From Candidatus Syntropharchaeum caldarium (GTDB lineage Archaea; Halobacteriota; Syntropharchaeia; Syntropharchaeales; Syntropharchaeaceae), in assembly GCA_001766815.1 (NCBI GenBank), contig LYOS01000001.1:148998-212997 (forward strand): a stretch of 64,000 nucleotides of DNA, written 5' to 3'. A model generated the notes under the pieces. It was not told the DNA's origin. It searched no databases and saw only the letters and a program-made list of their open reading frames with translations. The position numbers and the translations under genes were made by a program. Below, piece by piece: positions 1-56,857 of this stretch (within the stretch, counting starts at the first letter, position 1; each line of letters starts with the position of its first letter).

Positions 1-1023
1 CCGTGTGTTGCATACGGAAATGTATATGTGGGTTCATGGAACGGGGGGCACTATTACTGCTTGAATGACTCAACTGGAGAAATAAAATGGCAATTTCCTC
101 CAAAAGGTGAAAAGAAACTGGATCACGCACAATCAACACCAGCAGCACATAACGGAATGGTCTTCTTCGGTGATTTTACAGGCGGACCGAAATCAAAGGT
201 TTTTGCCGTTGATGGACTTACAGGTGAAGAGATATGGAATCAAACAGTTTCGTGGAGTGTCTGCGGCTCCGTTACGATTGCGCACAATAAGGTATACCTC
301 ATGACATATAATTTCTATGGTTCAGGAGAGTTTTATGCACTCAATGAAAATAACGGAAGCATTGTCTGGCAACATACGATTGCAAGGTCCGATTCTACAC
401 CGGCGCATGCGTATGGAAACATCTATGTCTGTGGTGGATGCCCAGGTTATGAGCGGTGTAGAACATACTGTCTGAATGATGCAGACGGAGGAAACGAGAC
501 CTGGAATGTGCCTGATTGGGGGATATGGACATATTCACCGATGGTTGCAGATAAGAAAGTATTTATTGGTAAAGCAGAGGGACCGGGGATGGACAGTATG
601 CTCCCAGCAGGGATGTCTGCTCGTAATGCCTTTACCGGAGAAGAGATATGGCGTTCAGATCTCGGCGGTGGTTCACCCGCGATTGTGCATGGGAGGGTAT
701 ATACCGTGGGGGGTGTTAATGCAACGGGCAGAGTTATCTGTTTCGGCTCTACAAACCAACCAGACCTCGAACTGAGTAATCTCACTACGGTTCCAAAGTC
801 AGATATCTATGTCGGTCAAAATGTTTCAATCAATGTGACACTCAGAAATATTGGCTCTGGTAACGCTTCTGCATTTAACGTTTCTTTACGAGTTAATGGT
901 GAGATAGAAGCGGAAAAAAGAATTGATGATGGACTTAATGTAAACGTTAGCATGCCTGTGAATTTCTCGTGGACTCCAGTAGAAGCTGGGGAGTATCTTA
1001 TCATCGTTGAAGCGGATTCGGAT
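1..1023. repeat. Copy A of an exact ~1.0 kb direct repeat (partner at 6282-7304); may extend upstream of the window
   Basis: Identical at every position compared by eye (1-60, 241-300, 481-540, 781-840, 961-1023 against offset +6281); first mismatch at 1024 vs 7305. Confidence 0.85.
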
Positions 1024-2138: not shown

Positions 2139-5100
2139 ATGGTGAAATGTGTGAGGCGATTGATAGCGGTATTTTTAATCTCGTTATTTATATTCCCGTT
2201 GGTATCTGCAGATCTCAGAAAGGATCTCACAGATAACCTCCCTCTAAGTGTAAGATCTCCTTCTGGTACTGAGACCCTGATCTGCGGTTACCTGTTTGAG
2301 AGGGGATCTACAGGCAGTGTAAGGATCACAAACCTCAACACCAGTTTAAGCTGGGATGCAAGGCTACTTGAGTCAGAGCCAGACTTCTACTACCTCTATC
2401 TCGATGAAATTGAGCTTAAAGCAGGAGATATGCTCAGGCTCAACGCAACCTCAGGTGATGAATCGGTCGTATTAATTCATACCGTAAACCAGAGTGAGAT
2501 CGATGAGCATCTGGTGTGGCTTGATATCATCGAGGATCTTGCGATAACAGAGATCACAATACCAAACAGAATTACAAAAGATATCAACACCACTATCCAC
2601 GCCGTAATTGAGAATATTGGACTGATACCAGTCGTTGTACCCTTCAATATTACATTCAGCGTTGATGGAGAACTCATAACTACTACCTCTTTTACAGAAG
2701 TTCCTTTAAACGCCAGTGAGAACTTTACCGTAGAATTTTATTGGACTCCTCTGGAATCCGGGATACACAACATCACAATCACTGTGGATCCGAATCATGA
2801 AATTATATCAGAGACGAATGAATCGAATAATCGAATGAAGAAAAGCGTGTCTGTTGCTGAACTACCTTCGTTTTATGTGCCACTGGACTTTCCCACGATT
2901 CAAGATGCGGTGGATAATGTAACAATTAACGGAACCACGATTTATGTCGCAAGCGGCACGTATAACGAGAATATAATGATTCAAAAGCAGATCACACTTC
3001 TGGGAGCGGATATGAATGATACAATCATAGACGGAGGTGGGAACGATACATTAAGGCTTTTTGCGAATAATTGTGTCATCAGAGGTTTTTCGATAATTAA
3101 TGGGAGCACAGGTATAAAGATCGAATCCAATGGCAATAAAATCTTTGAAAATTGGATTTATAACAACTCCTGCGGCGTAAATATCACCGGATTAAATAAT
3201 ACCGTTTATCATAATAATCTGAATAATGTTCAGAACGGATTTGATACCGGTAATAGTTCGTGGGACGATGGAAGGGAAGGAAACTACTGGAGCGATTGTA
3301 CCGGCGATGATTTCGATCTCAATGGGATTGTAGACACGCCTTATGAATGCGGGTGGGTAACGGATCGATATCCTTTAGTTTCTCCATATGTACTGCACAG
3401 AGACCCGGCAATCGCGTATCTCACTGTCCCCACATCTATTTATGTGAATGAAACGAATACTATCTTTGTGGGCATTGCCAATTACGGCACTTCAGAAGTG
3501 GCAAGCAATCTCTCACTCAAACTCGGTGGCACTATTCTGAACATGACGATTTCTCTACCATATAAGAGCATAAACGCTGTTTATTTCTGCGTGACTCCGA
3601 ACCAGATGGGGACAATAAACCTAACAGCGGAGATAGAGGCATGCAATGAAGATTCAAATAGAGCAAACAACCGGATGAGCGTGAATGTTACGGTAATTCC
3701 TTCGCCTTTTAAGCGCCTTTACAATTTTGATAACGAAACAACTATGGCGGAATATTATAAATATCAACTTCCTGAAAGCAGAACGAATGCTCTGGATTAC
3801 TTAGCAATGCAGCAGAATTCTGACGGCGGCATCGGTCAGGGTGGCTATTCGACAGATCTGGCTATTATAGCGGTATCATCTGCTGGAGAGAATCCGCAGG
3901 AGTTTGCGAGACTGAATTCGTCGCTTACAGATTATTTAAAAGCGCATCCGCCTCAGCATGACCTGACTTTAATATCTCGCTATGTGCTTGCGATTATCGC
4001 TTCTGGTGAGAATCCGCGTGATTTTGGTGGTAAAAACTATCTTGCGATGATTCAATCATTCTTCGATGGAGAACAGTTTGGAATTGAGAAGAATATCGTG
4101 GATGATGCGTGGGCTGTGCTTGCACTTACCGGAGCAGGATATGGCAATGACACAGAAATTATGCGAACTGAAAGGAATTATATTCTCAGGTGTCAGAATG
4201 AGAGTGATGGCGGATGGCCGTATTTTGAGAATGGAACGAGCTCAATCGATGTAACTGCGATAGCATTAGAAGCTCTGGTTGCTTCTGGTATAGCTGTGGA
4301 TAATAGTTCGATACAGAATGGCACGAAATATTTGGAAAAAAATCTTGTGAAGAATCAATGGGAAGAGGGGATGGGGCAGACAGACCCACTGCCAGAATCC
4401 AATCTGAAAAATTATGCTCATTCAGTCCAGGCAATCGTTGCTGTTGGAGGGAATCCGATAGATGGAAGCTGGGATTATTCGCAGAGTGCAGCTACATACT
4501 ACGGGATTGAAAACCCATACAACCCGCTACTTCTGCTCTTGGGACTCGAAGAGAAGTCGGGCGATTTTGAAGGTGGATTCGCGTTCACATTTAAAGATTC
4601 TTATCCCGAACCTAAATGGACATCAATGGCACTCCCCTCGCTGTTCGCAAAGCCATATCCTTCGATGTGCACGTATAGCCGGGTGCTATCAGACATAAAG
4701 CCCATTCATATAGGGACACGGGCTTGCTACACCAATGTTACAAATATTATCAATGCAACAATCAAGAACAACGGCGGGATATTCAACGTGAGTCTTCTTG
4801 TGGATGGTGCCGAGGTTGACCGCGCGAGAATTGTGGAGACGAATTCAACTGCATTATCGCGGGTGGAATTCAGATGGCTGCCAGAGAAAGAAGGGGAATA
4901 TAACCTCACCGTTGTGGCAGATTCTGAGAATTCAATAGAAGAGAATAATGAGAGCAATAACTGCATCGGCCGCGTGGTCACTGTGACGAAGCCAGACCTG
5001 CACCCCAGGACAGAACTGCCAGCATTCTATGTCAATGTGACAAACAGAATAGAAACAGAAGTTTTAGGATACGGCGAGGGATTCAACGTATCGCTTCTTA

Positions 5101-11273: not shown

Positions 11274-12686
11274 TTAGCAAAACTTCAGCATATTCACATC
11301 AAGGCTCCTGAGATTGACAAGCGCAGCACATCCCGGCACAGGCGTTATATTAAGCTTTTTCTGGTATTCGGTTTGTCCCTGCCATGTACCAGCGTTTATG
11401 GTGGTCACACCCCTGTATCTACCAACTCCGACTGTGTGTGTGTGCCCACAGAGCAGGATATCGGGAATTCGTTCGATAACGCCTGAATCGATAACAGACG
11501 GGACAATCGGTACTTTTCCACCATAAATCGGTGCTATATGCCGCCGTTTCAGCATCTCGATCATCGCACCTTCTGGATGATCGTATGAAAGACCAGGTAT
11601 TGCCATTATCAGGTCATCAAACGACTGTCCGTGATAGATCAGAACAGAAACACCATCAAGCTCAACCATGGCAGGGTTGCTCACAAATATCGTATTCTTA
11701 TGTTGCTTGAACAGAACCTGAATTCGTTCTGGGAGGCGGGGCTGGGGATCTGCCTGCCGCACTGCATCATGGTTTCCGGGTGCGATTATGATTGTGATCT
11801 CATCTGGAATCTCTGCGAGTGATCTGGCAACCCTCCTGTATTGCTCGGTGAGATCAGGGATGAGAAGTTCCTTCTCCTGATCTGGATAGACCCCGATTCC
11901 ATCGACCACGTCCCCTGCTATCACGAGATACTTCACCTTTCTGGAGAGTTCGATCTCTCGTTCACCACCAAGTTCCCCCCGCATCCATGCGATAAATCGC
12001 TCCCATGCATCGTCGATAAATGTGCAGTTCCCCATGTGAATATCAGAGATAAAAACCGCAAAACTCTCCACATCTGCATGATTCGGTGTGAAATTACTGA
12101 AAATATCTGGGAAGAAAATCTTATCGGCTACAAAAAGTTCTCCCTTCTTTGTCAGTGATCCCTGGACTCCTATCACCTCATCGAGGACAATATTGACATT
12201 CAGTTTGTCTTTCATAAGGAGCACGGGAAATCTGCCAGTCATATCTTCAAGATCAAGAATTGTGTGGCCGTTTGGAGTCTTGTTGATCTCTGAGACGACC
12301 CCGACAATCCCGATTTGATCCACGTCCAGTTTTTTAACCCGCTCGAGGCTTTTTATACTTCGTACATTCAACCTGCTCTGCAGAATGCGTGAGAGCCGTT
12401 CGTATCTGTCCCGAAATCGCTTAACAAACCCCCATTCATCGACCGCATCGATCTGGACATCTGATAAATCCAGCAGAACATTAAATGTACCTCTATTTCT
12501 CTTTCCATTCGCTTCACAGAAGCAGGAGATGTCTGAAGGACAGATGACAATTGTGGATTCATCGATTGAACTAAGGATCTCTTTAATCTGTGAATCTTCG
12601 ACCATCTGCTCGCAGAGCATTCGCGCAGCATCAGGGTGTAACTGGTATCCATGCTTTGCAAACCGCTCAACTATCCCCTCTATCAT
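11274..12686 (-). CDS. DNA polymerase II (PolD) small subunit DP1, calcineurin-like phosphoesterase domain
   Basis: Phosphoesterase motifs VIAGDVVDGIGVYP, APGNHDA, LLCGHTHT in a ~470 aa archaeal protein. Confidence 0.7.
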   Translation of the reverse strand: MIEGIVERFAKHGYQLHPDAARMLCEQMVEDSQIKEILSSIDESTIVICPSDISCFCEANGKRNRGTFNVLLDLSDVQIDAVDEWGFVKRFRDRYERLSRILQSRLNVRSIKSLERVKKLDVDQIGIVGVVSEINKTPNGHTILDLEDMTGRFPVLLMKDKLNVNIVLDEVIGVQGSLTKKGELFVADKIFFPDIFSNFTPNHADVESFAVFISDIHMGNCTFIDDAWERFIAWMRGELGGEREIELSRKVKYLVIAGDVVDGIGVYPDQEKELLIPDLTEQYRRVARSLAEIPDEITIIIAPGNHDAVRQADPQPRLPERIQVLFKQHKNTIFVSNPAMVELDGVSVLIYHGQSFDDLIMAIPGLSYDHPEGAMIEMLKRRHIAPIYGGKVPIVPSVIDSGVIERIPDILLCGHTHTVGVGRYRGVTTINAGTWQGQTEYQKKLNITPVPGCAALVNLRSLDVNMLKFC

Positions 12687-13685: not shown

Positions 13686-14969
13686 TTATTGTTTCTCGAC
13701 AAGATCGATAACCATCCCTGCAGCGATCGTCTGCCCCATATCTCGTATGGCAAACCTTCCAAGCTGTGGAATTTCCTTTGCCCTCTCGATCACAAGCGGC
13801 CTTGTTGGCCTTATCTTGACGATCGCAGCATCACCAGTCTTCAAAAATTGTGGGTTCTCCTCTGCGACCGCTCCTGTCTTTGGATCAAGCTTCTTCTGAA
13901 GTTCTATGAAGGTGCATGCGACCTGTGCGGTGTGACAGTGGAATACGGGCGTATATCCAACTGTTATTGCGCTCGGGTGTTGCAGGACAACGATCTGTGC
14001 TGTGAACTCTGCGGCTACCGATGGTGGGTTATCGACGTGCCCACAGACGTCACCTCTTCTGAGATCTCCTTTACCGATGCCTCGCACATTCCATCCGATA
14101 TTGTCACCTGGAATTGCTTCAGGGACCTCCTCGTGGTGCATCTCGATGGATTTAACCTCACCAGACTTCATCGTTGGGCTGAAGATAACCTTATCGCCTT
14201 TCTTCATTACACCAGTCTCAACCCTGCCAACGGGGACGGTTCCAACGCCTGAAATCGTGTAGACATCCTGTACAGGTATTCTGAGTGGGAGGTCTATCGG
14301 TTTCTCAGGCTCTTTGAAGTTGTCGAGTGCTTCCAGGACAGTTGGTCCTTTGTACCACTTCAGGTTCTCGCTTGGCTCTGTTACATTGTCTCCCTTGAGT
14401 GCAGATACAGGCAGGAATGTAACCATATCCCCCTTGTATCCAACGATCTTCAGGAGATCTTCGATGTCCTTCTTGACCTCGTTGTAGCGCTCCTCGCTGT
14501 AGTCAACCATGTCCATCTTGTTCAGCGCAACGATGAGCTGGTTGATACCGAGTGTCCTGGAGAGGAAAACATGCTCCTTTGTCTGCGCCATCACACCGTC
14601 CTTTGCGTCAACGACAAGAATCGCGGCATCTGCCTGGGATGCGCCTGTGATCATGTTCTTGACAAAGTCACGATGCCCTGGACAATCTACAACCGTGAAG
14701 TAATACTTGTCGGTATCGAATCGCTGATGAGCAATATCGATCGTGATACCACGCTCTCGTTCTTCCTTCAGTGAGTCCATTACCCATGCAAACTCAAATG
14801 TCGCTTTTCCCTTCGCTTCTGCCTCTTTTCGGTACTGCTCGATCAAATGTGGATCAATCGTCTTTGTCTCAAAGAGCAATCTTCCCACAAGTGTCGACTT
14901 ACCGTGATCAATATGTCCGATCACAGCCAGATTCATGTGTGGTTTTTCTGCCATATCAAATTCCTCCAA
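13686..14969 (-). CDS. tuf: Translation elongation factor 1-alpha (aEF-1A)
   Basis: [47 protein letters not shown]; GGAGG Shine-Dalgarno-like motif upstream. Confidence 0.95.
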
Positions 14970-15032: not shown

Positions 15033-15746
15033 TTACTGTCCCAACTTCAATCGCCTGTGTGCACTTTTGAGCCATTCTGTAGCCTCTTCCATCGCATCAA
15101 CCGCGTGTTCAAGGTCTGTTTTTAAATCAGACAGTCCAAGTGCATCAGCTTCGATCACAGCTTTTTCATAGCTCTCTATATGTCCCTCGCTGTGTTCAAT
15201 CCAGTGTTCAAGTTTCTTTTTTAAGCGTTCTGCATCCATACAACGCCTCCTCAGAAGTTTTACCATCTTTTCGATGTTAATCCAGTGCCCCCCCTCCCAG
15301 AATACATGGCCACAACCTGTACACTGCCAGAACTCCAGGTCACCGAGGCTTGAAGCAGGTACATATTCATACCCTTCTTCTTCCTTTAGTTTTTTGACAT
15401 CATCCTTATTCAATCTTTTGATCGACTCGTTGCATAACGTGCAGCGGAGAACTCGGGTACATGGCTCAATACCAACCCCCAGCATCACCTCTGTGAGCTG
15501 CTCGGCTGTATTCACCGAGTGTATTCGCAGCGCATCTATTCCACGCTGCCTGCACCTCTCAATCAACTCACGATCACGGCTCAATACTATTCGATCTTCC
15601 TTTTTTGCCATCTCAAGAAGTTCCCCATCATCAGCCTCATCACTTGCATAGATCGTATCATACCCGAAGAGTCTGAGCCATGATTTCATGCGACCGAGCA
15701 TACAGTCAACAAGGAACCTCATTCTTTTAATCTCTGCATCACTCAT
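15033..15746 (-). CDS. Mut7-C RNase domain protein (PIN-like) with zinc ribbon and a C-terminal helical extension
   Basis: RFLVDCMLGRMKSWLRLFGYDT N-terminus; CTLCNES...CTGCGH zinc ribbon; extra ~60 aa charged tail. Confidence 0.6.
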   Translation of the reverse strand: MSDAEIKRMRFLVDCMLGRMKSWLRLFGYDTIYASDEADDGELLEMAKKEDRIVLSRDRELIERCRQRGIDALRIHSVNTAEQLTEVMLGVGIEPCTRVLRCTLCNESIKRLNKDDVKKLKEEEGYEYVPASSLGDLEFWQCTGCGHVFWEGGHWINIEKMVKLLRRRCMDAERLKKKLEHWIEHSEGHIESYEKAVIEADALGLSDLKTDLEHAVDAMEEATEWLKSAHRRLKLGQ

Positions 15747-15756
15747 ATTAGATTTA

Positions 15757-17088
15757 ATGGTAGTTCATGTATCACCCGACTCACTTGATTGGATCACTGG
15801 TGTGCGGGTTTATCTCACAGATGGGCAGGGTATAGGTGGAATAATAAAAGCAGAGCCCGAGGATTTTATTGTCGAAGAGCTATCGGAGTCAGATACAGGA
15901 GAGGAGGGTAACTATCTCATCCTTGATCTCGAGAAGCGTGACTGGGAGATGCACAACCTTGTGAGGGTAATCTCTCGGATACTTGGGATCAGCAGAAGAC
16001 GGATCAACTGGGCAGGAACGAAGGACAAGCGAGCGGTCACGAAACAGCGAATCAGTATCTGGAAGATCGATGCAAGCGAGATCGAACGCATCAGGCTAAA
16101 TGGTGTTAAACTCAATGTGGTCGGCAGATCACAGAAAAAAATTGCAATCGGGGATTTATATGCCAATCAATTTGAGATAATCGTGAGAGAGGTTAATTCA
16201 ACAGGCAAAGAGGTTGAAAATAGCCTTATACAGATACAGAGTGAGATAAAAGCGCACGGGGGTGTCATAAACTACTTTGGTAATCAACGTTTCGGTGTAC
16301 AGCGTCCGATAAACCACAGAATAGGGGAACTTCTCATAAAAGGTGAGTTTGAGGACGCGGCATATCTACTTCTCACAGCCACCTTTGGACGTGAGGACGA
16401 GGAGGTCGAAGAGGTGAGGCGGTTCATTTATACCACGGGCGACTTCAAACGGGCGGTTGAGCTTATGCCAAAGGGACTGCATCTCGAACGGACGATACTC
16501 CATGCACTCATCAATAAACCTGATGACTATCTCGGTGCTTTCCTCACACTCCCAAAACAACTCTACAAGATTTTCATCCATGCTTACCAGTCATACATCT
16601 TCAATCGGATTGTTTCTGCAAGGATGGAGGAAGGACTTGGGTTGAATGAGGCAGAAGAGGGAGATATAGTCTGCTTCAGAAATAAGCATGGTTTTGCTGA
16701 TGTCAGGCACTGGCAGGTGGTGAGATCCCATGAGGTTGCGGGAATCAACGACCTTATAGCACGAGGACGTGCATTTGTAACTGCCCCACTCATTGGCTTT
16801 GAGACCGAGATTGCCGGCGGCAGAGAGGGGGAGATAGAACACAAAATCCTTGAATCATGTAAAATTGAGCCCGAAGACTTCAGAATGGATGAAGTTGAAG
16901 CGCTTGCATCAGGGGGCATGAGACGGGAGATAAAACTTCCGGTGGATCCATCATTTGAGGTTCTTGGGGATCGGATGGTTAAGTTTGCATTCGTCCTGCC
17001 AAAAGGGGGGTATGCAACGATAGTGCTTCGAGAGTTTATGAAGACGTGTGATACGCCGGGAAAGGGATTTGAACCCTTGAGGGGATAA
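15757..17088 (+). CDS. truD: tRNA pseudouridine(13) synthase TruD
   Basis: EDFIVEE and GTKDKRAVTKQ motifs; start placed at the first ATG after the upstream gene (the track ORF extends further 5'). Confidence 0.8.
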   Translation: MVVHVSPDSLDWITGVRVYLTDGQGIGGIIKAEPEDFIVEELSESDTGEEGNYLILDLEKRDWEMHNLVRVISRILGISRRRINWAGTKDKRAVTKQRISIWKIDASEIERIRLNGVKLNVVGRSQKKIAIGDLYANQFEIIVREVNSTGKEVENSLIQIQSEIKAHGGVINYFGNQRFGVQRPINHRIGELLIKGEFEDAAYLLLTATFGREDEEVEEVRRFIYTTGDFKRAVELMPKGLHLERTILHALINKPDDYLGAFLTLPKQLYKIFIHAYQSYIFNRIVSARMEEGLGLNEAEEGDIVCFRNKHGFADVRHWQVVRSHEVAGINDLIARGRAFVTAPLIGFETEIAGGREGEIEHKILESCKIEPEDFRMDEVEALASGGMRREIKLPVDPSFEVLGDRMVKFAFVLPKGGYATIVLREFMKTCDTPGKGFEPLRG

Positions 17089-17171
17089 TCCCCACAGGCT
17101 AACTGGATTTTAATTCCTATCAGAACAAAAGTACTCTCCAGGCCTGCGCCTTACCGCTCGACCATCCCGGC
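17054..17171 (-). tRNA. tRNA-Ser (anticodon GGA) with a ~34-35 nt intron in the anticodon loop
   Basis: Reverse complement gives 7-bp acceptor stem GCCGGGA/TCCCGGC, discriminator G, anticodon stem CAGGC/GCCTG, loop CTGGAGA, long variable arm GGGG-ATTA-CCCC, T-arm AAGGG-TTCAAAT-CCCTT; intron 3' end pairs with the anticodon region (bulge-helix-bulge-like). Folded by eye only. Confidence 0.55.
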
Positions 17172-31682: not shown

Positions 31683-32510
31683 TTACCCTTTGAGAATCCT
31701 CAATATTTGATCATGAGTCTCCTCATCGCGTGCACCGACAAAAGATATCCCTTTGACATCAGCAAGCGCACGGATTGGCTCACCTGCTGTATCTGTCAGG
31801 ATCCCGCCGGCTTCTTTCAGTATGAGCGATGACGCCATGATGTCATATCCATTCATGACATCACGCACCTCGATGATCCCGTCGAGCGCTCCCTGAGCGA
31901 GAAGACACATCTCGATCGCTATGCTCCCGAGTACCCGTATGATATTTCGTCCCCCAAACTCTAAAATCCCGTGGGGAAGCTGGTTTACCCCATAGCTGTA
32001 GATGCAAAAGATCTGCTTTTTCCTTCGATCACGCTCGATATGCCCAACATCGATCTTCTTATCATCCAGAAACGCACCCTCTCCCCGCACAGCATGATAC
32101 GTCCGCCCGTATGCAGTTTTTACAATCCCGATCGTGATATCATCAAACCCAACATCTTTGACCTTTGGTGCATAGGCGATCGATGTGCAGAAGAAAGGAA
32201 TCCCACGAGATGCATTTGTAGAGCCATCAACAGGATCGAACACAAGCGTAAATGCTGGATCTTCTCCTGACGGAATAACTCTATCTCCAAGTTCTTCAGA
32301 GATTATCCGCGCAGAAAGATCATGTTCAAGCAGATAAGCCTCAAGCGTATCCTCTGCGACCATATCGAGCTTTCTTGTAACGTCTCGACTCTTCTCCATA
32401 ACGATCTTATCGAAATCATCCGAGTGCAGAATACAATCAGTAACATTTGAAATGACCGCATCTGCAAGTTTGAGGAGGATTTCACGCATCTCACCTGCTG
32501 GTTTCATCAT
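31683..32510 (-). CDS. Inositol monophosphatase / fructose-1,6-bisphosphatase family protein
   Basis: IMPase motifs FDPVDGSTNASRG and later metal-binding region. Confidence 0.8.
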   Translation of the reverse strand: MMKPAGEMREILLKLADAVISNVTDCILHSDDFDKIVMEKSRDVTRKLDMVAEDTLEAYLLEHDLSARIISEELGDRVIPSGEDPAFTLVFDPVDGSTNASRGIPFFCTSIAYAPKVKDVGFDDITIGIVKTAYGRTYHAVRGEGAFLDDKKIDVGHIERDRRKKQIFCIYSYGVNQLPHGILEFGGRNIIRVLGSIAIEMCLLAQGALDGIIEVRDVMNGYDIMASSLILKEAGGILTDTAGEPIRALADVKGISFVGARDEETHDQILRILKG

Positions 32511-34141
32511 TGAATCTCCTTAATCATAAAAGCGCCCCGTGTCTCATAACCTTTTCTTTTATAATATCCCCTGACTCCTATACCGCTCATCACAGCAATC
32601 CTTGAGAATCCGTGATCCGAAGCCACCTGTTCTGCTTTGGCAAGGAGCCACTCACCATAACCTCTGTGCTGCCATCCAGCCACCCCGGTATTCTCAAATG
32701 GTGCGATTGGACCATATACATGGAGTTCTCGGATGAGTGCTGCCCCATCAAGTTCGTTCATAAAAGGATCTTCAGGGAATCGCAGGCGCAGGAACGCAAC
32801 AAGCGCATCATCCGCTACGGCATCGATCGATATGAAATTCTCAACTCCACCTGCACACGCATACTGTTCGATCTTGAGTGCAAGATCTCCTGTTTCAAAT
32901 GCCACCTCTTCGAGCATACGGTGACCGACCTCTCTGCAGCGGATACATCTGCATCGTTTCCCAGCTTTTTCCATCAGATTTCTTGCGATCTGCCTCAGGT
33001 TGCTCTTTTTAACCCCTGCAAGTATCTTATCTGCTGGAATATCCCGTTGCACCCTCTGTAGTCTCGTCCATGGTGGAATCATCGGTTTAATCCTTGAAAT
33101 AAGTTCTGCTGCGGATTCAGTCGTCAGTGGCTGGTATTCACCCTTTTCCCAGAGTTTTGCAATCTCTGAACCCTCAACAACCAGCGTGGGGTATATCTTC
33201 AGATAATCGGGCATGAAGTCAGGATTGCTGAAGATCTCATCGAAAGATGCAAAATCAAGTTCCGGGTCAGATCCAGGAAGTCCGGGCATCATGTGAAAAC
33301 CCACTTTGAGCGCCGAGTCCCTGAGGAGCCTGTTTGCCTCGATAACATCCTCACGGGTGTGTCCGCGATTTATGCGCCTGAGTATATCATTATCTGTATG
33401 CTGAACCCCGAGTTCAACCTTTGTTACACCCAGATCGAGCATGCGTTCAATATGTGACTTGCTGCACTGATCAGGCCTCGTCTCGAATGTGATCCCTGTG
33501 TTTCGCACTCTTGCAGTCTCATTGATCCTCTGGACATCCTTCCAGTCATTCGCTGGGCTCTTGTTTGGATATGGGGCACCAAAATCATTCATAGCCTCTA
33601 TCGAGCGCTTCACAAACCACTGCTGGTAATCAGGCGAGCGGGAGGTGATCGTACCGCCCATGATAATAAGCTCCACCTTATCAACCTCGTGCCCGATCTC
33701 ACTCAACTGGTTCAATCTTGCCTCAACCTGTTTGTAGGGATCAAAATCATGCTGCAACCCCCTCATAGCGGCAGGCTCATGACCTGTGTAACTCTGTGGG
33801 GATTCAAACACAGAATCAGGACCACCAGGACACACAAGACACTTACCATGCGGACATGGATAAGGGGACGTCATGGCCGCGACAACAGCAACACCAGAGA
33901 TTGTCCTTACTTTTTTTCGTCTTAAAAGATCGAGAAAAACGGGTTTAAGCGGTAATCCTTCGATTTTAATCAGCTCTTTAAGTATATCAGAGTTTTTTGG
34001 AAGTGTATTTAGATGGTGCTCTGATCCAACCTCTTTTTTCATTCGATTGAGATCTATGGGCTTCATTTCCTTCTCATTGATAGATCTCGATACCGCTCTT
34101 GCAAGCGTTTCACATGCGTTCTGATAGCTGGAGTGACTCAT
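32507..34141 (-). CDS. elp3: Elp3-family radical SAM / GNAT tRNA modification enzyme
   Basis: Radical-SAM cysteine cluster region (CPHGKCLVCPGG) and C-terminal GNAT domain; 544 aa. Confidence 0.9.
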   Translation of the reverse strand: MSHSSYQNACETLARAVSRSINEKEMKPIDLNRMKKEVGSEHHLNTLPKNSDILKELIKIEGLPLKPVFLDLLRRKKVRTISGVAVVAAMTSPYPCPHGKCLVCPGGPDSVFESPQSYTGHEPAAMRGLQHDFDPYKQVEARLNQLSEIGHEVDKVELIIMGGTITSRSPDYQQWFVKRSIEAMNDFGAPYPNKSPANDWKDVQRINETARVRNTGITFETRPDQCSKSHIERMLDLGVTKVELGVQHTDNDILRRINRGHTREDVIEANRLLRDSALKVGFHMMPGLPGSDPELDFASFDEIFSNPDFMPDYLKIYPTLVVEGSEIAKLWEKGEYQPLTTESAAELISRIKPMIPPWTRLQRVQRDIPADKILAGVKKSNLRQIARNLMEKAGKRCRCIRCREVGHRMLEEVAFETGDLALKIEQYACAGGVENFISIDAVADDALVAFLRLRFPEDPFMNELDGAALIRELHVYGPIAPFENTGVAGWQHRGYGEWLLAKAEQVASDHGFSRIAVMSGIGVRGYYKRKGYETRGAFMIKEIQ

Positions 34142-40874: not shown

Positions 40875-42200
40875 CTACGATTCATCAAAAAATTCACAAT
40901 GGTCTCTCAGCACCTCATCAACCGCCTCGATAAACCGCTCTTCTGATCCAGGAGGGATCGCCCCGCCCGATGCGATGTTGTGCCCCCCACCGACACCACC
41001 AACTCTGGATGCAGCAATCTTCATAATCTCGGATAAATCAACTCCTTTTGAGATGAGTGCTCTTGTCCCACGCGCAGAGATCTTTGATATGTTCTCAAGC
41101 TGATTTATCACAAATATCGGCTTATCAGGATATAGGTATCGAATTATCGCTCCTGCAAAGGCACCTGTAATATCGCGATCCTCAGCAAAGATATACCTGA
41201 ATCCCGCACGCTCTTTGATCTTCTGATCCACTGTCTCAAGCTCTCTCAGGACCTTTTTTTGAAACTCAACCCTTATCGCCGATGCCTCGTCAAGCCCTTT
41301 CCGATCTCTCATGCAGAGTGAAAGTGCAAGCCCTGTCTTTCCTTTTTTTCCACACGCATCGATTATCTGCATAAACCTGATCGCATCCTGGATCACCTCG
41401 TACGGGAGGATGTATCGCTCACCAACGAGATCAGCTATTGCATCCTCGCTCGATCTCGTCCTTATTTTTGAGATGATCGCATCTATCAGTCGTTTCTCAT
41501 CATCATCGCTTAAATCACTGAGTCTACCGCTTATCCCGAGTTCATCGAGAAACGCATCAACCCCTTCTTCAAAATGAATGTATGGCTCAGTTGAAAGCGC
41601 AAGCTCTTCTTTGAGATCACCATCAGCTATTTTAAGCCCTTCCTGGAGTATGACAACCCCATTCTTCACCGCTTCATTGAGAATATCTCGGTTCACACCA
41701 ATCATGCGCTGCTTATCTCCGATTGCACCTGTAATCGCAAGTCCAGCAAGATCGAAGTTATCACCAAGCGCTTTTGAGACTGTATATGTGCACCCTGATG
41801 CAGAGACTTCGAAAGCACCATCAATACCCACACAATGGGGGTTTAGCTGGATTATGTCGGGAGGTAGCTCATCTTTATATCGGTGATGATCGATCACAGC
41901 GATCTCAAGCCCAAGCTCATGCCGAATTTTATTCAGCAGCTCACCCTGACTGCTCCCCATATCACAGAAGAGGAGCAGATCTCCTTCTTTGGTTGAATCA
42001 CGGAGGAGATCGAGGATGCTCTCATCAAGCCGCGATAGAAGCGTTGCATGGAAATGGATATTGCATCGAAGAAGTGCATGCGAGATTATACCAGCAGACG
42101 TGATTCCGTCTGCATCGTGATGAGATATGACTCTCACAAACTCGTGATCTCTGATTTTTGCTGCAACCTTCTTTGCTGCGCCTTCCATGAGTTCAATCAT
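40875..42200 (-). CDS. DHH/DHHA1 RecJ-like nuclease (archaeal RecJ/GAN-type)
   Basis: DHH motifs ISHHDADGITSAG and IDHH; C-terminal GGGHNIASGG DHHA1 motif. Confidence 0.6.
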   Translation of the reverse strand: MIELMEGAAKKVAAKIRDHEFVRVISHHDADGITSAGIISHALLRCNIHFHATLLSRLDESILDLLRDSTKEGDLLLFCDMGSSQGELLNKIRHELGLEIAVIDHHRYKDELPPDIIQLNPHCVGIDGAFEVSASGCTYTVSKALGDNFDLAGLAITGAIGDKQRMIGVNRDILNEAVKNGVVILQEGLKIADGDLKEELALSTEPYIHFEEGVDAFLDELGISGRLSDLSDDDEKRLIDAIISKIRTRSSEDAIADLVGERYILPYEVIQDAIRFMQIIDACGKKGKTGLALSLCMRDRKGLDEASAIRVEFQKKVLRELETVDQKIKERAGFRYIFAEDRDITGAFAGAIIRYLYPDKPIFVINQLENISKISARGTRALISKGVDLSEIMKIAASRVGGVGGGHNIASGGAIPPGSEERFIEAVDEVLRDHCEFFDES

Positions 42201-47116: not shown

Positions 47117-48334
47117 CTACATCACCTTTTCAAGTGTCATATCAAACATCTTCTTTGTCTCACGCGCCAGACCCTCTGGAAGTCCTTTGATATCGATGCT
47201 CAGAAAACCTCGTATTATCATGCCGACTGCCTCATCCTCTGTAAATCCTCTTGCCATCAGGTATCGTATCTCTTCTTCAGCGATCTTTCCAACCGCTGCC
47301 TCGTGCGATAGATCAATATTCTTCCTTCGGGCTTTGAGCTCTGGTATCGACTCGATCATCGAAGAATCTGATAGCATAAGTCCCCTGCACTCAAGGTGTC
47401 CACGCACGTTTTCTGCTTCACCGACGAGATCGCCTTTTGCAATGATTCGTGCATTATCTGTTGCAATTGCCCTTGAGATTATCTCCCCTCTGCTTCCTTT
47501 ACCCTGAAGCACGATCCTCGAACCCGAATCGATATTCGTGTTACCATGTGCATAGATTATCGACTGGAATGATGCCCTTGAATTCTCACCAGCACAGATA
47601 GCAGTGGGATACATCTGGAGGGATTTTACAGGCGTCATGAATATATAGTTACTGATAAATACGCCGTTATCCTCGATAAGCGTGGCACTTCTTGGTCGCA
47701 CATCGACTCCACCCGACCAGTTGTGAACCATCGTGAATGTGATCTTTGCGTTTTTCTTTACATAGAACTCTGATATGCCAAGATGCAGAGCTTCGCTAAC
47801 AGTGTGTGCGACGGTACATCCTGTTATTATATTGAGTTCAGAGTTCTCCTCTGCGATTACGATATTGTGAACATTCTGCCTGATCTTATCCTTTGATATG
47901 AAGAGACAGGACTGTAGCGGTAACGTGATCTTCGTACCTTTTTCTGCCCGCAGGAAGTACCCCTGGGTCGGCCTTTCCGCAACTTCTTTCGTGTAAATAT
48001 CCTTATCAGCAGGGACGATATTCCAGAGGTATTCATCAAGCCAGGAATGTTTCTTAATGGCTTCTTCTGTGCTCAGGATCTCAAGCCCTGGAATCAGTGA
48101 TTTTGCAAATACGACCGAGTGATCCTGCTGTAAGAACGATCCTGATCGTTCCTTTTCTTCTGGATCTATACCTGCTGCAAGTAACTCTCCCTCATACTCA
48201 TCAAGCTCCTTGAGTGATGAGATTGGACCATGCTCTCCTCCCTTAAGCCTGTAGGATTCGATCTTGACCTCTTCAGAACTCACACCTAACACCTTCTTTT
48301 CCGCATTTTGCAACACAGCCTTCAAACCCTTCAT
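47117..48334 (-). CDS. Fe-S cluster assembly protein SufB/SufD family
   Basis: SufBD beta-helix-like C-terminal region; the track start overlaps sufC by 62 nt, so the true start is probably further downstream. Confidence 0.75.
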   Translation of the reverse strand: MKGLKAVLQNAEKKVLGVSSEEVKIESYRLKGGEHGPISSLKELDEYEGELLAAGIDPEEKERSGSFLQQDHSVVFAKSLIPGLEILSTEEAIKKHSWLDEYLWNIVPADKDIYTKEVAERPTQGYFLRAEKGTKITLPLQSCLFISKDKIRQNVHNIVIAEENSELNIITGCTVAHTVSEALHLGISEFYVKKNAKITFTMVHNWSGGVDVRPRSATLIEDNGVFISNYIFMTPVKSLQMYPTAICAGENSRASFQSIIYAHGNTNIDSGSRIVLQGKGSRGEIISRAIATDNARIIAKGDLVGEAENVRGHLECRGLMLSDSSMIESIPELKARRKNIDLSHEAAVGKIAEEEIRYLMARGFTEDEAVGMIIRGFLSIDIKGLPEGLARETKKMFDMTLEKVM

Positions 48335-49031
48335 TCAGGATGTGGTTGTAGATCTCTTCTGTTATGCCTGAGCAGGCGATCCTTCCATCGAGCAGGACAT
48401 GTGCTCTGTCTGCTTTTATGTAGTTTAAGATGTATCCGATGTGGGAAATTATGAGGGCAGACTTTTGACGCTCGCTGGGTCTTCTGTCACGCTCAAGCAT
48501 CTCGTTTGTTATTTTACCAAGAAGCTCCACGTTCTCAACATCAACACCCGAATCAGGCTCATCAAACATGAAAAAGTCAGGGTTCTGCGCAAGAAGCTGT
48601 AAGATCTCAGAGCGTTTCACCTCTCCTCCAGAGAAACCGAGATTCAGATCCCGGGAAAGGAACTCTTCTGAGAGGTTCAGCCTTCTGGCAAGTGCTTTTG
48701 CATCGCCACCACCTCTTCTCTCAAGAAGCTGTCCCACAACATCACCGAGCTTCACACCCCTGATTTCAGGGGGATGCTGGAAGGATACGCCCATCCCGAG
48801 CTTTACTCGATCTGTGGTATTAAACTCGGTTATATCAACACCCTTGAAGTATATCTTTCCTTCAACGACGTTATATCCTGGAAACCCGAGTATCGTCAAA
48901 AAAAGCGTTGTTTTGCCGGATCCATTTGCACCAAAGAGAACATGAACCTCTCCCTCGCCGATATGGAGGTTCAGATCATTGAGTATCCGCTTACCTCCAA
49001 CCTCGACCGAGAGATTCTGAATCTCAAGCAC
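48273..49031 (-). CDS. sufC: Fe-S cluster assembly ATPase SufC
   Basis: Walker A GANGSGKTT, signature FSGGEVKRSE, Walker B FMFDEPDSG. Confidence 0.9.
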   Translation of the reverse strand: MLEIQNLSVEVGGKRILNDLNLHIGEGEVHVLFGANGSGKTTLFLTILGFPGYNVVEGKIYFKGVDITEFNTTDRVKLGMGVSFQHPPEIRGVKLGDVVGQLLERRGGGDAKALARRLNLSEEFLSRDLNLGFSGGEVKRSEILQLLAQNPDFFMFDEPDSGVDVENVELLGKITNEMLERDRRPSERQKSALIISHIGYILNYIKADRAHVLLDGRIACSGITEEIYNHILNEGFEGCVAKCGKEGVRCEF

Positions 49032-52923: not shown

Positions 52924-54105
52924 TCAAAACCACCTGGTGAGTGCGTCATTCATGACCGCCTCGATATCTATTCCTGTGACATTGATCACGATGTATGCAC
53001 CAAGGAGTGTTCCGATGACACTTCCAATGTTTGCAAGGGCTGTAACAAGCAGGATTTTGAAGATCGGATTTCGTAAAAGCTCAGATGGTGTCTCGACATC
53101 GATCAATTCCTTCAGATCGCCGGTGGTAGGCGATCTTACCCATGCCTCAACAAGTCCTGCAAACCATCCTGCCGCAATCATCGGATTCAGCGATGTGATC
53201 CATGCAACAGCGAACGCGGTTAGGGCAGAGAGTGGATGTCCACGTGCGATCACAACACCTGTTGCTGAGAGAACTCCGTTTATAACGATCCAGTATCCGA
53301 GCGCAAGAAGCATAAGGTGCATTGAAACTCCTGATGTGATAATAATGACAAGTGTCAGCATCAAAAAGGCAAAGATCCCAAATCCAAACAACTTTCCAAT
53401 ATTGATCCGTTTCTTTGGAACTGTTTCAATCTCATCCATGCTCTTAATTGAGCTCGGATCTCGGAGGTGTCTCCTGATTCCATCAAGATGCCCTGCACCA
53501 ACAACAGCCACAATATTGCCCCGAAGATGCAGTAGCTGATTGGCGATATACGCATCCCGTTCATCGATCAGGACTTCTGCAGCTGAGGGGGAGTATCTTC
53601 TCAACTCTTCTATGAGCTGTGAAACAATATCTCCATCTGTGATACTATCAATCTCGATCTCTTCCTCCCCAATACCTACAATCGATTCAATGATTGCAAA
53701 GAGCATCTTTAGCTTCTCTCTGAACTTCATTTTACCCCAGAATCGTTGCATCGTAATCCTTATATCCCGATCAACGAGTGCAATCTGGATATTACGCTCT
53801 TCTGCTGCATCTATCGCTGCAAGCATCTCTGCGCCAGGTTCAACTCCAAGTTCACGCCCAATCTTTCGCTGGACGTACGCCATGAGATACTGCATCAGTA
53901 GAAGATAGACGTTCCCGCTTTTTATCACATCTTTTATCGATGTTTCCTCAACTTCCCCCTTGAGTGCCATGTAGCGTGCCTGGCAGAGTTCAACAGCGAC
54001 GACATCGGGCTTCAGTTCGTCTATTGCCTGCTGTACTTCTCGCACGCTCTTTTCAGATACATGTGCTGTTCCAACCAGTGTTATTTTTGTCTCTGGTTCA
54101 TCCAT
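52924..54105 (-). CDS. TraB/PrgY/GumN family protein with C-terminal TM helices
   Basis: ITLVGTAHVSEKS and VAVELC motifs. Confidence 0.7.
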   Translation of the reverse strand: MDEPETKITLVGTAHVSEKSVREVQQAIDELKPDVVAVELCQARYMALKGEVEETSIKDVIKSGNVYLLLMQYLMAYVQRKIGRELGVEPGAEMLAAIDAAEERNIQIALVDRDIRITMQRFWGKMKFREKLKMLFAIIESIVGIGEEEIEIDSITDGDIVSQLIEELRRYSPSAAEVLIDERDAYIANQLLHLRGNIVAVVGAGHLDGIRRHLRDPSSIKSMDEIETVPKKRINIGKLFGFGIFAFLMLTLVIIITSGVSMHLMLLALGYWIVINGVLSATGVVIARGHPLSALTAFAVAWITSLNPMIAAGWFAGLVEAWVRSPTTGDLKELIDVETPSELLRNPIFKILLVTALANIGSVIGTLLGAYIVINVTGIDIEAVMNDALTRWF

Positions 54106-54114
54106 CTTTTCATC

Positions 54115-55215
54115 TCACATCCTCAATATCTCGATTAATCGTATGAGGTCTGTCTTTGAGAGGATGCCAACGAGCATCCCATTTTTCACGACAAGAAGTC
54201 GTCCGACATTGTACTGGTTCATCAGCCGCAGAACATCAGCAGCAGACACATCTTCTGAGATCGTGATAAGATCTTTTGTCATTATGTCCCGCACCTTCAC
54301 CTCACCAAGTTTCTCCGGTGGCACTCTCTTGACATCTGTGAGACTCACAACACCGATTAGAGTCCCAAAATTATCAACAACCGGGTAACCTCGATGTCTA
54401 TCTGTCAGCACAAAATCGAGAAACTCCTGTGCGGTGATATCAGGTGAGACCGTCACAACATCTCTTGATATAATGTCTTTTATCCGTACCCCTTCGAGAA
54501 ACATCTGTATACTTGTTGCACTCTCTTCCTCTGAAGCAGCGATGTATATGAAGAATGCGATCAGGATCAACATCCATCCACCGTATATTAGTCCAAAAGT
54601 TCCCATCAATATCGCAAAGATTTTTCCGATCTGAACAGCCCGCCTTGTTGCATTGAGATAGGATGACCCCCGTGTTGCAAGATATGCTCGAAGTATTCTT
54701 CCTCCATCCATTGGAAATGCTGGCAGCAGGTTAAACGCTGCAAGAACGATATTAATATAACCCATCGCAAATGCAAGAATCCCAAAGCCATTCCACCAGA
54801 CATTACCGTGTATTGTACTGAAAGGTACATGGAGCATGAGAAAAGTCGATCCAATGAGGATACTTGTGATCGGCCCCGCAACAGCGATCCGTGATTCTAT
54901 CTTTGGATCTCTTGGAATCTCCTTCATCGATGCAATCCCACCAAAGATGAAGAGTGTGATTGACTCGATCACAACGCCATAACGCATCGCAACATAGGAG
55001 TGTGCAAGTTCATGTGCGATAACGCAGGCAAAGAGGATGAGTGTTGTGGTACTTGCAAGTATAAATCGTGCTACAGGTGGTTCGACCTCTGCAAACCCGA
55101 AAGGAGCAGGTTGATTCATGAATACCAGGATAAACGGTGGTAGAATCAGTAGAAATGTGATATGCAGTTTTATCGGTATTCCCATTGCCTTACCGATCTC
55201 AATTGATGTTCGCAT
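54115..55215 (-). CDS. Site-2 protease (M50 family) with tandem CBS domains
   Basis: HELAHS zinc motif in a TM helix; C-terminal CBS pair. Confidence 0.8.
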
Positions 55216-55277
55216 GCATTTTATATAATATCTGTACCTATTTAGCTTTAAGCTTCAATTTGATGCGTGGTACGAGA

Positions 55278-56279
55278 ATGAATGAGCGAATCATCTCGCC
55301 TGAAGAGAGATATGATCAGACCGATGAGATTAATCTCAGGCCGTGTAGACTGTCAGATTTCATCGGACAGGAGAAGGTGAAAGAACAGCTAAGGATATTC
55401 ATTGAGGCTGCAAAGGCGAGGAAGACTGTGCTTGACCATATCCTCTTTCATGGACCACCTGGTCTTGGGAAGACAACGCTTGCGCGAATCGTCGCAGAGG
55501 AGGTGGGTGTAAACATTCTCTCAACAAGTGGACCTGTGCTTGAGAAGGCGGGTGATCTTGCCGCGATCATAACAAACCTGGCTGAAGGCGATGTTCTTTT
55601 CATCGATGAGATTCACAGGCTCAATACAACGGTTGAGGAGATCCTGTATCCAGCTATGGAAGATTTCAAGCTCGATATTATAATTGGAAAAGGTCCTGGC
55701 GCTCGCTCAATAAAGCTAAACACGCCAAAATTTACGCTGGTTGGTGCAACCACAAAGACCGGGCTACTTTCATCACCCCTGCGGGATCGGTTTGGTGTCA
55801 TATCGAGGATGGAGTTCTATACACCTCTTGAACTTAAAAAGATCGTGGAGAATGCATCAGAGAGGCTTGGGATAAGGATTGAATCTGATGGTGCATACGA
55901 GATCGCAAATCGCTCAAGGGGTACGCCAAGAATTGCTCTGCGGTTACTGAAACGGGTTCGTGACTTTGCAGAGGTCAGGGGGAATGGTACCATTGATCAA
56001 GATATTGCTGATACAGCGCTCAGGATGCTTGGGGTCGATGAGCGAGGTTTTGATGAGACGGATCGGCTCATATTATCAACGATCATCGATAAATTTAGAG
56101 GGGGACCTGTTGGGCTTGATACAATCGCATCAGTGATAGGTGAAGATTCAAACACGATCGAGGATGTCTATGAACCATATCTACTCCAGCAGGGATTCAT
56201 AAACAGGACGCCACGTGGCAGGGTTGCAACGGATGATGCAAAGGAGTGGTGGAGTAAGACATTTTCATCGAAATTATAG
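55278..56279 (+). CDS. ruvB: Holliday junction branch-migration ATPase RuvB (bacterial-type)
   Basis: [63 protein letters not shown]; alternative start at 55263. Confidence 0.85.
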
Positions 56280-56287
56280 CCCGTTGG

Positions 56288-56857
56288 TCATCGAGACTCT
56301 AATAACCATCTGTAGTATCTGCGCTGAAAAAAAGAGGTGTGCTCAGGTCGAAGACCAAAGAACTTCAAGATATTGTATAAAAATCGAATATGCGGCTTGA
56401 AGGCCATGTCAGCATTCTCAGCAAGATCATCCGCAGGGAGATTCAAACCATGTAAGAGTTCGTGCACGATACGCAGCTCGAGCAAACCAATTTTTTCGTC
56501 ACCGGTGACGATTATACTTATCATATCATCCGTATTCGATTGAGAATCTGGGCCACTGATCGCCCCACCTGCATAACTCGATATCTCATCTATGTGCTGA
56601 TGATAGTCCATGATGAAGATCTTCCCAGGTTCAGCAGGCATAATTATCGCCCATCGTTTTCCATCTTCATCCTCAAAATCCACCAATCGATGAGGCTCAT
56701 TCAGAACATTTTCGACGCTGACCGGGTTCGTAACAGCATTTTCCCACTCATCGACTCTCCAATTTTCTGAAACACGCCTTAAAGCCTTTGAAACTAATTC
56801 TTGAATGCTGCTTTCAATTACAATCTTCATCTGCGATGCACCATCTGATATTTGCAC
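56288..56857 (-). CDS. Hypothetical protein with HExxH motif
   Basis: 189 aa acidic protein containing IVHELLHGL. Confidence 0.35.
   Translation of the reverse strand: MQISDGASQMKIVIESSIQELVSKALRRVSENWRVDEWENAVTNPVSVENVLNEPHRLVDFEDEDGKRWAIIMPAEPGKIFIMDYHQHIDEISSYAGGAISGPDSQSNTDDMISIIVTGDEKIGLLELRIVHELLHGLNLPADDLAENADMAFKPHIRFLYNILKFFGLRPEHTSFFQRRYYRWLLESR

Follow-up and report, generated by a model that had tools for sequence, protein, structure and literature searches.

The solved bacterial RuvBs used here for comparison are those of P. aeruginosa (7x7q and 6blb), S. thermophilus (7pbl), T. thermophilus (1hqc and 1ixr) and T. maritima (1in4). RuvAB without RuvC is known in bacteria, and RecU is the resolvase in Bacillota. 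The archaeal machinery of Hel308/Hjm and Hjc presumably serves the same cellular task as the RuvB described here, and its components belong to unrelated protein families, which this RuvB does not resemble. According to a review, Hjc is conserved in nearly all sequenced archaea, and the Hjc of M. thermautotrophicus restores repair to E. coli without RuvC, so that the two systems can cooperate in vivo. Proteins of the same or a similar name are also known from archaeal contexts, namely the 'RuvB' of Asgard mini-Yucahu-i, that of Methanoperedens mini-Borgs and the pT26-2 ATPase of Thermococcales, the last of which has weak similarity to RuvB. These are encoded on extrachromosomal or integrated elements, whereas the RuvB reported here is chromosomal and matches the family at full score; the descriptions of those proteins set them apart from it.

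In the literature searched, no paper discusses RuvB in Syntrophoarchaeum, and Ruv entries are absent from the supplements to two papers, one on ANME comparative genomics and one on Alkanophaga. The sole literature trace that we found consists of two rows in a supplementary table of PMC11543930. Syntrophoarchaeum RuvB is already known in kind and in annotation, from a GenBank entry and from these 2024 supplement rows, which also record RuvA. The host phylum, Halobacteriota, is known for importing bacterial genes, and we regard the case as an undiscussed but unsurprising bacterial-to-archaeal gene transfer. The reading that we favor, at a probability of about 0.75, is that the protein is an orthodox RuvB which was acquired once from a bacterium by an ancestor of Syntrophoarchaeum, has since been inherited vertically and is most likely still partnered with RuvA.

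The window, that is, the whole 64,000-nucleotide stretch analysed, contains a genuine, intact bacterial-type ruvB gene:

55278-56279, + strand, ruvB coding sequence, 333 amino acids plus stop, with the start picked by orthologue comparison

The six-frame list of open reading frames holds a long + strand frame (55185-56279) that includes the frame from 55263, where an earlier reading made from the sequence only (hereafter the sequence-only reading) had placed the start of the gene. Its assignment to RuvB and the end at 56279 stand, but the start is corrected to the ATG at 55278, 15 nt downstream, because all RuvB orthologues begin with M(N/D/S)ERIISP, because the ATG equivalent to 55263 is out of frame in an orthologous locus (L001) and because GenBank has the 333-aa version of the protein. 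The window RuvB is 100% identical to that GenBank protein, OFV68556.1 (Holliday junction DNA helicase RuvB, Candidatus Syntrophoarchaeum caldarius). Pfam models cover the translation from 55263 end to end, with E-values of 2.7×10−79 for RuvB_N (profile positions 1-159 of 159), 1.7×10−30 for AAA_lid_4 and 1.9×10−25 for RuvB_C. Two NCBIfam equivalog models score far above their curated cut-offs (NF000868, 509.4 bits against 282; TIGR00635, 470.3 bits against 299). With a RuvB_N domain, an AAA lid and a C-terminal winged helix, and with scores above the equivalog cut-offs, the protein is by every sequence criterion applied a full member of the RuvB family. In a phmmer search against solved structures it matches P. 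aeruginosa RuvB at 1.3×10−129 over about 316 residues and also aligns with 17 other distinct RuvB chain sequences; RFC, Lon and DnaX are weaker AAA+ matches. These results, together with RGTPRIA at residues 214-220, bear out the earlier claim that all RuvB hallmarks are present, including the sensor-2 motif. The domains and motifs are as follows, with conservation given among 69 diverse RuvBs:

55335-55811, + strand, RuvB_N large AAA+ ATPase domain (PF05496), residues 25-183 of the translation from 55263
55452-55478, + strand, Walker A, with K65 and T66 each present in 67 of 69
55605-55616, + strand, Walker B DEIH, with D110 and E111 in 69 of 69
55671-55733, + strand, presensor-1 beta-hairpin, in which hydrophobic I145 and L147 are kept
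55788-55790, + strand, arginine finger R171, in 69 of 69
55818-56039, + strand, AAA lid or small ATPase domain (PF17864), which includes sensor 2
55917-55937, + strand, sensor-2 motif RGTPRIA, residues 214-220, with R218 as sensor 2
56040-56243, + strand, C-terminal winged-helix (head) domain (PF05491), Pfam match
56205-56222, + strand, DNA-contacting R310, R313 and R315, equivalent by alignment to P. aeruginosa R314, R317 and R319 (PMC10071043)

The AAA+ catalytic set is present (K65/T66, D110/E111, T158, R171, R218, the N-terminal R21 and the trans-acting E128/D129), as are the gate residues L20 and R21. We take T158 to be sensor 1. The roles of Walker A and B, sensor 2 and the trans-acting residues follow PMC9477746, those of the DNA contacts follow PMC10071043, and that of the arginine finger follows both. 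Residue numbering of the window RuvB coincides with that of the S. thermophilus RuvB of Wald et al. 2022 (PMC9477746). E36, R48, D229 and R234 are the counterparts of the inter-subunit salt-bridge residues E40, R52, D233 and R238 in P. aeruginosa (PMC10071043). Moreover, an alignment of 155 bacterial RuvBs has 162 columns with at least 90% conservation, and the window RuvB agrees with 153 of these. The protein thus resembles bacterial RuvB in its full-length three-domain architecture and in its catalytic, oligomerisation, RuvA-docking and DNA-contact residues. It differs in its archaeal host and in being encoded by a monocistronic gene with a TATA-box-like element, rather than in a (yebC-ruvC-)ruvA-ruvB operon.

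The genes around ruvB were said by the sequence-only reading to be archaeal, and the content of the window agrees with this:

11274-12686, DNA polymerase II (PolD) small subunit
13686-14969, aEF-1alpha
17054-17171, tRNA match of 118 nt, uncalled by ARAGORN, consistent with an intron
32507-34141, Elp3
52924-55215, - strand, TraB-family protein and M50/CBS site-2 protease, the conserved upstream neighbours of ruvB

TruD, CofC, an archaeal/eukaryotic-type ribosomal protein S15 and a TFIIB-type zinc ribbon protein are also encoded in the window, and further genes specify SecY with a Sec61 plug, an EMC3/TMCO1-like protein, an archaeal-type 3-dehydroquinate synthase II and an F420-dehydrogenase FrhB-like subunit. 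The order TraB, M50/CBS and divergent ruvB recurs in GCA_026134025.1 (on a 90-kb contig), GCA_054799455.1, a Logan assembly and GCA_030596445.1, and the loci that share it are L001, L002, L003 and L089. In the S. butanivorans-type locus, NifU-SufC-SufBD lies directly upstream of ruvB, and in the window SufBD and SufC are about 6 kb upstream of the gene; a further shared neighbour is present in a JGI contig. The arrangements of the TraB, M50/CBS and Suf genes across loci thus indicate a neighbourhood that is broadly shared, with a variable downstream side. TraB and M50/CBS are syntenic markers and not functional partners of RuvB. The genome was assembled from the metagenome of a mixed culture, and a bacterial fragment might in principle have been misjoined to archaeal sequence. 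Such an assembly or binning artefact has a negligible probability here: ruvB is flanked on either side by archaeal genes within the 64-kb window, itself part of a 492-kb contig; four other assemblies join the gene to archaeal neighbours in the same way, and the JGI contig has a further shared neighbour; there is no compositional break, and the sequence upstream holds an archaeal TATA-box-like element and no match to a sigma-70 promoter.

Across the archaeal loci examined, ruvB is monocistronic, divergent from the upstream gene and usually convergent with the downstream gene. Two candidate signals precede the gene in the window:

55220-55229, + strand, archaeal TATA-box-like element TTTATATAAT, some 50 nt ahead of the ATG, within the 62 nt that separate the two divergent genes
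55267-55272, + strand, putative Shine-Dalgarno-like GTGGTA, 5 nt before the ATG

The TATA-like core TTATATAA is conserved in the loci orthologous to the ruvB locus, and TTTATATAAT is probably the promoter of ruvB and possibly also that of the divergent M50 gene. A search of 55000-56500 for sigma-70-like promoters found none. Counterparts of the Shine-Dalgarno-like sequence in ruvB orthologues read GAGGTA, GTGGTA or GTGGGA.

The sequence-only reading had also proposed comparing codon usage and GC content with the flanking genes, and ruvB is host-typical in both. Its GC (0.471) and GC3 (0.455) both lie within 0.4 SD of the 54 window genes, its codon typicality ranks 51 of 54, among the most host-typical, and the composition profile of the window shows no GC break. 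Between archaeal orthologues, dN/dS of ruvB is 0.08-0.11 at dS of 0.9-1.4, and the values for M50 and TraB are 0.10 and 0.07, respectively. Amino-acid identity between the orthologues is 85% for RuvB, 82% for M50 and 80% for TraB. Judged by these rates, ruvB has diverged in step with the genome and has been kept functional by purifying selection.

To place the protein among its relatives, homologues were searched in 5.8 billion proteins and the best 120 hits were listed. Identities among these 120 hits are 100, 91, 86, 85 and 81% and then fall straight to 68% or below; the top five clusters are Syntrophoarchaeum or Syntropharchaeales where named, and the remainder are bacteria where named. The RuvB orthologues include OFV65976.1 of S. 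butanivorans and those of other Syntrophoarchaeum/Syntropharchaeales MAGs, and the gene is retained by the two described Syntrophoarchaeum species as well as by additional MAGs. The nearest bacterial hits among the best 120, at most 68% identical, carry yebC-ruvC-ruvA-ruvB operons. Named bacterial references were loci, bacterial only among the matches listed, from a scan of genome contigs with the window RuvB; these named genomes are 58-66% identical, the nearest among the matches listed being Desulfuromonadales, Nitrospinota/Nitrospiraceae and Paenibacillus. Phylogeny had been suggested as a check as well, and the archaeal copies form a single clade: in a neighbour-joining tree of 161 sequences, the six archaeal sequences group together in 100 of 100 bootstraps, and in a tree of 69 diverse representatives clustered at 50% identity, the archaeal clade is recovered in 200 of 200. 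No candidate sister group of this clade exceeds 25% bootstrap in either of the two neighbour-joining samples, and an attempt to name the RuvB donor by this method was given up on that account. On average, bacterial groups are 0.49-0.58 away from the archaeal clade and 0.44-0.61 away from one another; the distance to Desulfuromonadales (0.49) is less than many distances between bacterial groups. Such a pattern is consistent with a single old acquisition and vertical descent thereafter.

The distribution of the gene within the class bears on the same question. Supplementary Data 4 of PMC11543930 sets 7 Syntropharchaeia genomes that encode ACR against 54 that encode MCR (ANME-1), and RuvB (family PF_04771) is listed in 4/7 of the former versus 0/54 of the latter. 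S. butanivorans RuvB is SBU_001158 in this table (PF05496/PF05491, TIGR00635). Descent of an ancestral RuvB from deep within Archaea would accommodate the long branch of the archaeal clade and its position among bacterial RuvBs with at most 25% bootstrap, but it is very improbable in view of the absence from all 54 genomes of sister lineages in the same class. Furthermore, reviews give Hjc for archaeal junctions and RuvABC as a bacterial system, no archaeal name appears in the best 120 hits beyond the five Syntrophoarchaeum-clade clusters (most of these hits being nameless), and the clade lies closer to Desulfuromonadales than many bacterial groups lie to each other. Horizontal acquisition, which the sequence-only reading had raised, is therefore the best reading, given the 0/54 in ANME-1 and distances like those between bacterial groups.

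A recent transfer from a bacterial neighbour, such as a sulfate-reducing syntrophic partner, is hardly credible for several reasons. The top bacterial identity in the best 120 hits is just 68%, composition and codon usage are wholly host-like, synonymous sites are near saturation between syntenic archaeal orthologues, the branch of the archaeal clade is about phylum-level in length, and the bootstrap of any sister group is at most 25%. These outweigh the tight consortia with Desulfobacterota-type partners described in the literature and the finding that Desulfuromonadales and Nitrospinota/Nitrospiraceae are nearest by mean distance among the matches listed with names. The old single acquisition that we favor makes Syntrophoarchaeum, a butane-oxidising archaeal genus, a clean case of a bacterial DNA-repair motor that became fixed in an archaeal lineage.

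The sequence-only reading had noted that ruvA and ruvC are missing from the window, and tblastn upholds this. With RuvA and RuvC queries taken from the operons of the two closest bacteria, neither gene was found in the window or in the flanks of the five orthologous archaeal loci (best E-value 0.42), and no ruvA lies beside ruvB in the archaeal loci examined. Matches at 15372-15536 (E-values 2.4-8.7) fall inside a Mut7-C/PIN-like RNase gene and were dismissed as chance. The gene downstream of ruvB in locus L089 (180 aa, same strand) was considered as a RuvA candidate and rejected, as the RuvA and RuvC queries fail to match it; on inspection of its translation, it resembles the N-terminal CoA-binding part of an acyl-CoA synthetase.

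RuvA is nevertheless recorded elsewhere in the lineage. In the same Supplementary Data 4, the RuvA family PF_06079 occurs in 3/7 ACR-encoding versus 0/54 MCR-encoding Syntropharchaeia, and S. butanivorans RuvA, SBU_000616, has all three domains (RuvA_N, HhH and RuvA_C; TIGR00084) (PMC11543930). Its gene is flanked by those of a TctA-family membrane protein and of methanopterin biosynthesis, and thus it lies in archaeal surroundings (PMC11543930). The ruvA and ruvB genes of S. butanivorans are unlinked, their locus tags being about 540 apart, and two further alkane-oxidising Syntropharchaeia genomes are also listed with RuvA (PMC11543930). An ADP-ribosylglycohydrolase, another 3/7 family of that table, is found in the GCA_026134025.1 locus, which suggests that '3/7' denotes three Syntrophoarchaeum genomes, left unnamed in the table. 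We infer that S. caldarius itself encodes RuvA. As for RuvC, Supplementary Data 4, in which lineage-enriched families alone are listed, holds no PF02075 family, and its sole 'RuvC' string belongs to the COG description given for a DUF460 protein ('RuvC/YqgF family') (PMC11543930). The table likewise gives the large subunit of exonuclease VII (xseA) and further families of bacterial type as specific to the group that has RuvA and RuvB (PMC11543930).

The presensor-1 hairpin in bacteria is the docking site of RuvA domain III, where RuvA acts as a nucleotide-exchange factor (PMC9477746). In the window RuvB this hairpin agrees with the bacterial consensus, and across the archaeal sequences I145 is present in 6/6 and L or I occupies position 147 in 6/6. 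An exposed hydrophobic patch held under purifying selection is what would be expected if the partner still binds. I145 and L147 presumably correspond to I148 and I150 of E. coli (Han et al. 2001).

It was also considered whether S. caldarius RuvB could be a repurposed motor that acts without RuvA, either alone as a double-stranded-DNA translocase or together with Hjc, PCNA or Hel308-associated factors. The monocistronic ruvB, with no ruvA beside it in the archaeal loci examined, would agree with this, and E. coli RuvB by itself can reportedly drive branch migration in vitro when the concentrations of protein and Mg2+ are high (Mitchell and West, 1996). Moreover, all archaeal RuvB copies carry L221, A193 and N192, near the Leu20 latch that gates ADP release, a step normally promoted by RuvA; residues 193 and 221 lie in the pocket that holds Leu20 and hence controls ADP release (Wald et al., PMC9477746). 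Among the 155 close bacterial homologues, N221 is invariant and S193 and R192 are nearly so. The picture changes with the 69 diverse representatives, 13 of which have L or I at position 221 and 12 of which have A193; the two changes therefore fall within ordinary RuvB variation, N221L and S193A being found in ordinary bacterial RuvBs as well. RuvB in 4/7 but RuvA in 3/7 genomes (PMC11543930) would likewise point to a RuvB without partner, but the gap can be explained by incomplete MAGs (completeness 88-96%). A RuvA-independent motor is thus unlikely, as the lineage has a three-domain RuvA and all six archaeal sequences keep the hydrophobic residues of the RuvA-docking hairpin.

These results speak against the suggestion, made from the sequence alone, that the gene encodes a repurposed ATPase: it is old, host-adapted and conserved in the genus, and a three-domain RuvA is encoded elsewhere in S. 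butanivorans. The sequence-only reading had itself held that an established archaeal clade with RuvA encoded elsewhere would make ruvB an ordinary feature of the lineage; such a clade was found, and RuvA is recorded elsewhere in the lineage. The gene is neither a recent arrival nor contamination, and it is probably no orphan. Thus corrected, ruvB is to be read as a long-carried, annotated trait of the lineage, most likely not orphaned and no sign of recent exchange with a syntrophic partner.

Under the favored reading of a single old acquisition, the ancestor of the genus Candidatus Syntrophoarchaeum would have taken up ruvB once, from a bacterium, and the gene would then have descended vertically as a stand-alone gene behind an archaeal-type promoter. 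RuvB most likely works as it does in bacteria, to judge from its conserved residues, and would be a hexameric AAA+ double-stranded-DNA translocase for the branch migration of Holliday junctions. A RuvA tetramer made from an unlinked locus would bind the junction, dock RuvB via the conserved presensor-1 hairpin and serve as its nucleotide-exchange factor, and two RuvB hexamers would load onto opposite arms and pump DNA. With no RuvC in evidence, the junction would presumably be cut by archaeal Hjc. We infer that RuvB and RuvA of S. caldarius are partners, that junctions are passed on to Hjc and that the TATA-like element is in use. Operon linkage with ruvA is the single system-level trait that ruvB lacks; this separation, uncommon for two genes that in bacteria almost always share an operon, stands against a full RuvAB reading, as does the listing of RuvB in one genome more than RuvA.

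A broader proposal, which we put forward tentatively and hold to be somewhat less than an even chance, is a chimeric pathway in which bacterial RuvA and RuvB, their genes split and re-promoted, move the junctions made by RadA and pass them on to the Hjc of the archaeal host, no RuvC having been acquired with them. Such a pathway would be similar to the RuvAB of Bacillota in combining RuvA and RuvB with no RuvC in view and in leaving cutting to a nuclease other than RuvC; unlike in Bacillota, archaeal Hjc would be the candidate for cutting, and RadA would take the place of RecA as the recombinase. The lineage is a natural test case for a bacterial branch-migration machine that meets archaeal RadA, Hjc and PCNA. 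In a sharper version of the chimeric pathway, S. caldarius RuvB may be independent of RuvA through a re-tuned Leu20/ADP-release latch (L221, A193 and N192).

The clade substitutions near the nucleotide gate (N221L, S193A and R192N, together with D129E) could mean altered regulation. A re-tuned gate formed by L221, A193 and N192 was, however, downgraded to a minor curiosity, the variants at positions 221 and 193 recurring in the 69-sequence sample. The other changes are rarer, R192N occurring in 2/69 and D129E in 1/69 of the diverse representatives; the five archaeal orthologues other than the window protein have D129E, and the window protein keeps D129. The archaeal sequences also share a signature at nine positions (Q37, T/S/G50, I98, K160, M178, N192, A193, L221 and S285). 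Several of its single changes are also found in bacteria, and the full combination is present in 0/69 diverse representatives.

Asp129 belongs to the trans-acting signature of RuvB, and its mutation cripples branch migration (Wald et al., PMC9477746). Residue 129 of the RuvB encoded in the window (55278-56279) is Asp, as it is in 64 of the 69 diverse bacterial RuvBs sampled, and it is Glu in all five other archaeal orthologues, including those at loci L001, L004, L089 and L090. A RuvB of 408 amino acids with an N-terminal extension is encoded on a farmland-soil contig (L008, 1463-2689) and groups in the tree among non-archaeal sequences. No ruvA lies upstream of this gene; its place is occupied by a HicB-like antitoxin gene.

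Besides RuvA and RuvB, S. butanivorans encodes xseA, the large subunit of a bacterial-type exonuclease VII (SBU_000644), and an adjoining DUF460 nuclease of the "RuvC/YqgF family" (SBU_000645). Each is found in three of seven ACR-encoding Syntropharchaeia genomes, versus none of the 54 MCR-encoding (ANME-1) genomes (PMC11543930, Supplementary Data 4). These hint at a broader group-specific set of bacterial-type DNA-repair genes.

The neighborhood of ruvB includes the following features.

47117-49031 (-), SufBD and SufC, about 6 kb upstream of ruvB
56288-56857 (-), ORF of 189 amino acids, convergent with ruvB

In the S. butanivorans-type contig L004 (185-2317), SufBD and SufC, together with NifU, lie directly upstream of ruvB. 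Within the genus, the interval separating the Suf genes from ruvB has therefore gained or lost about five genes. The convergent ORF has no Pfam match, a GC content of 0.432 and a very atypical codon usage, the second or third lowest within the window. Its orthologue is kept in the JGI contig L090, and other genes stand in its place at L001 and L089, two archaeal loci from other assemblies.

Elsewhere in the window, the following features were noted.

28-2130 (+), first very large putative surface protein
2139-8039 (+), second very large putative surface protein, 1966 amino acids
9755-11263 (+), DHH/DHHA1 (RecJ/GAN-like) protein fused to a TrkA-N domain, adjoining the PolD small subunit gene
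15033-15746 (-), Mut7-C/PIN-like RNase gene
15688-17088 (+), TruD ORF, divergent from the RNase gene
17054-17171 (-), tRNA of 118 nt
40875-42200 (-), DHH/DHHA1 (RecJ/GAN-like) protein, adjoining ribosomal protein S2

The tRNA, just past the TruD gene, matches the full Rfam model with 44.9 bits and receives no call from ARAGORN; an archaeal tRNA that carries an intron is the likeliest reading. At the other end of the TruD ORF, the annotated start overlaps the RNase gene by about 60 nt, and the true start is probably downstream of the annotated one. In the first surface protein, a PQQ/BamB-like beta-propeller and CARDB are joined by two cohesin domains and a C-terminal dockerin, and the second has NosD-like and BamB-like repeats; together they appear to form a cohesin-dockerin pair, and their archaeal host lives in cell consortia.
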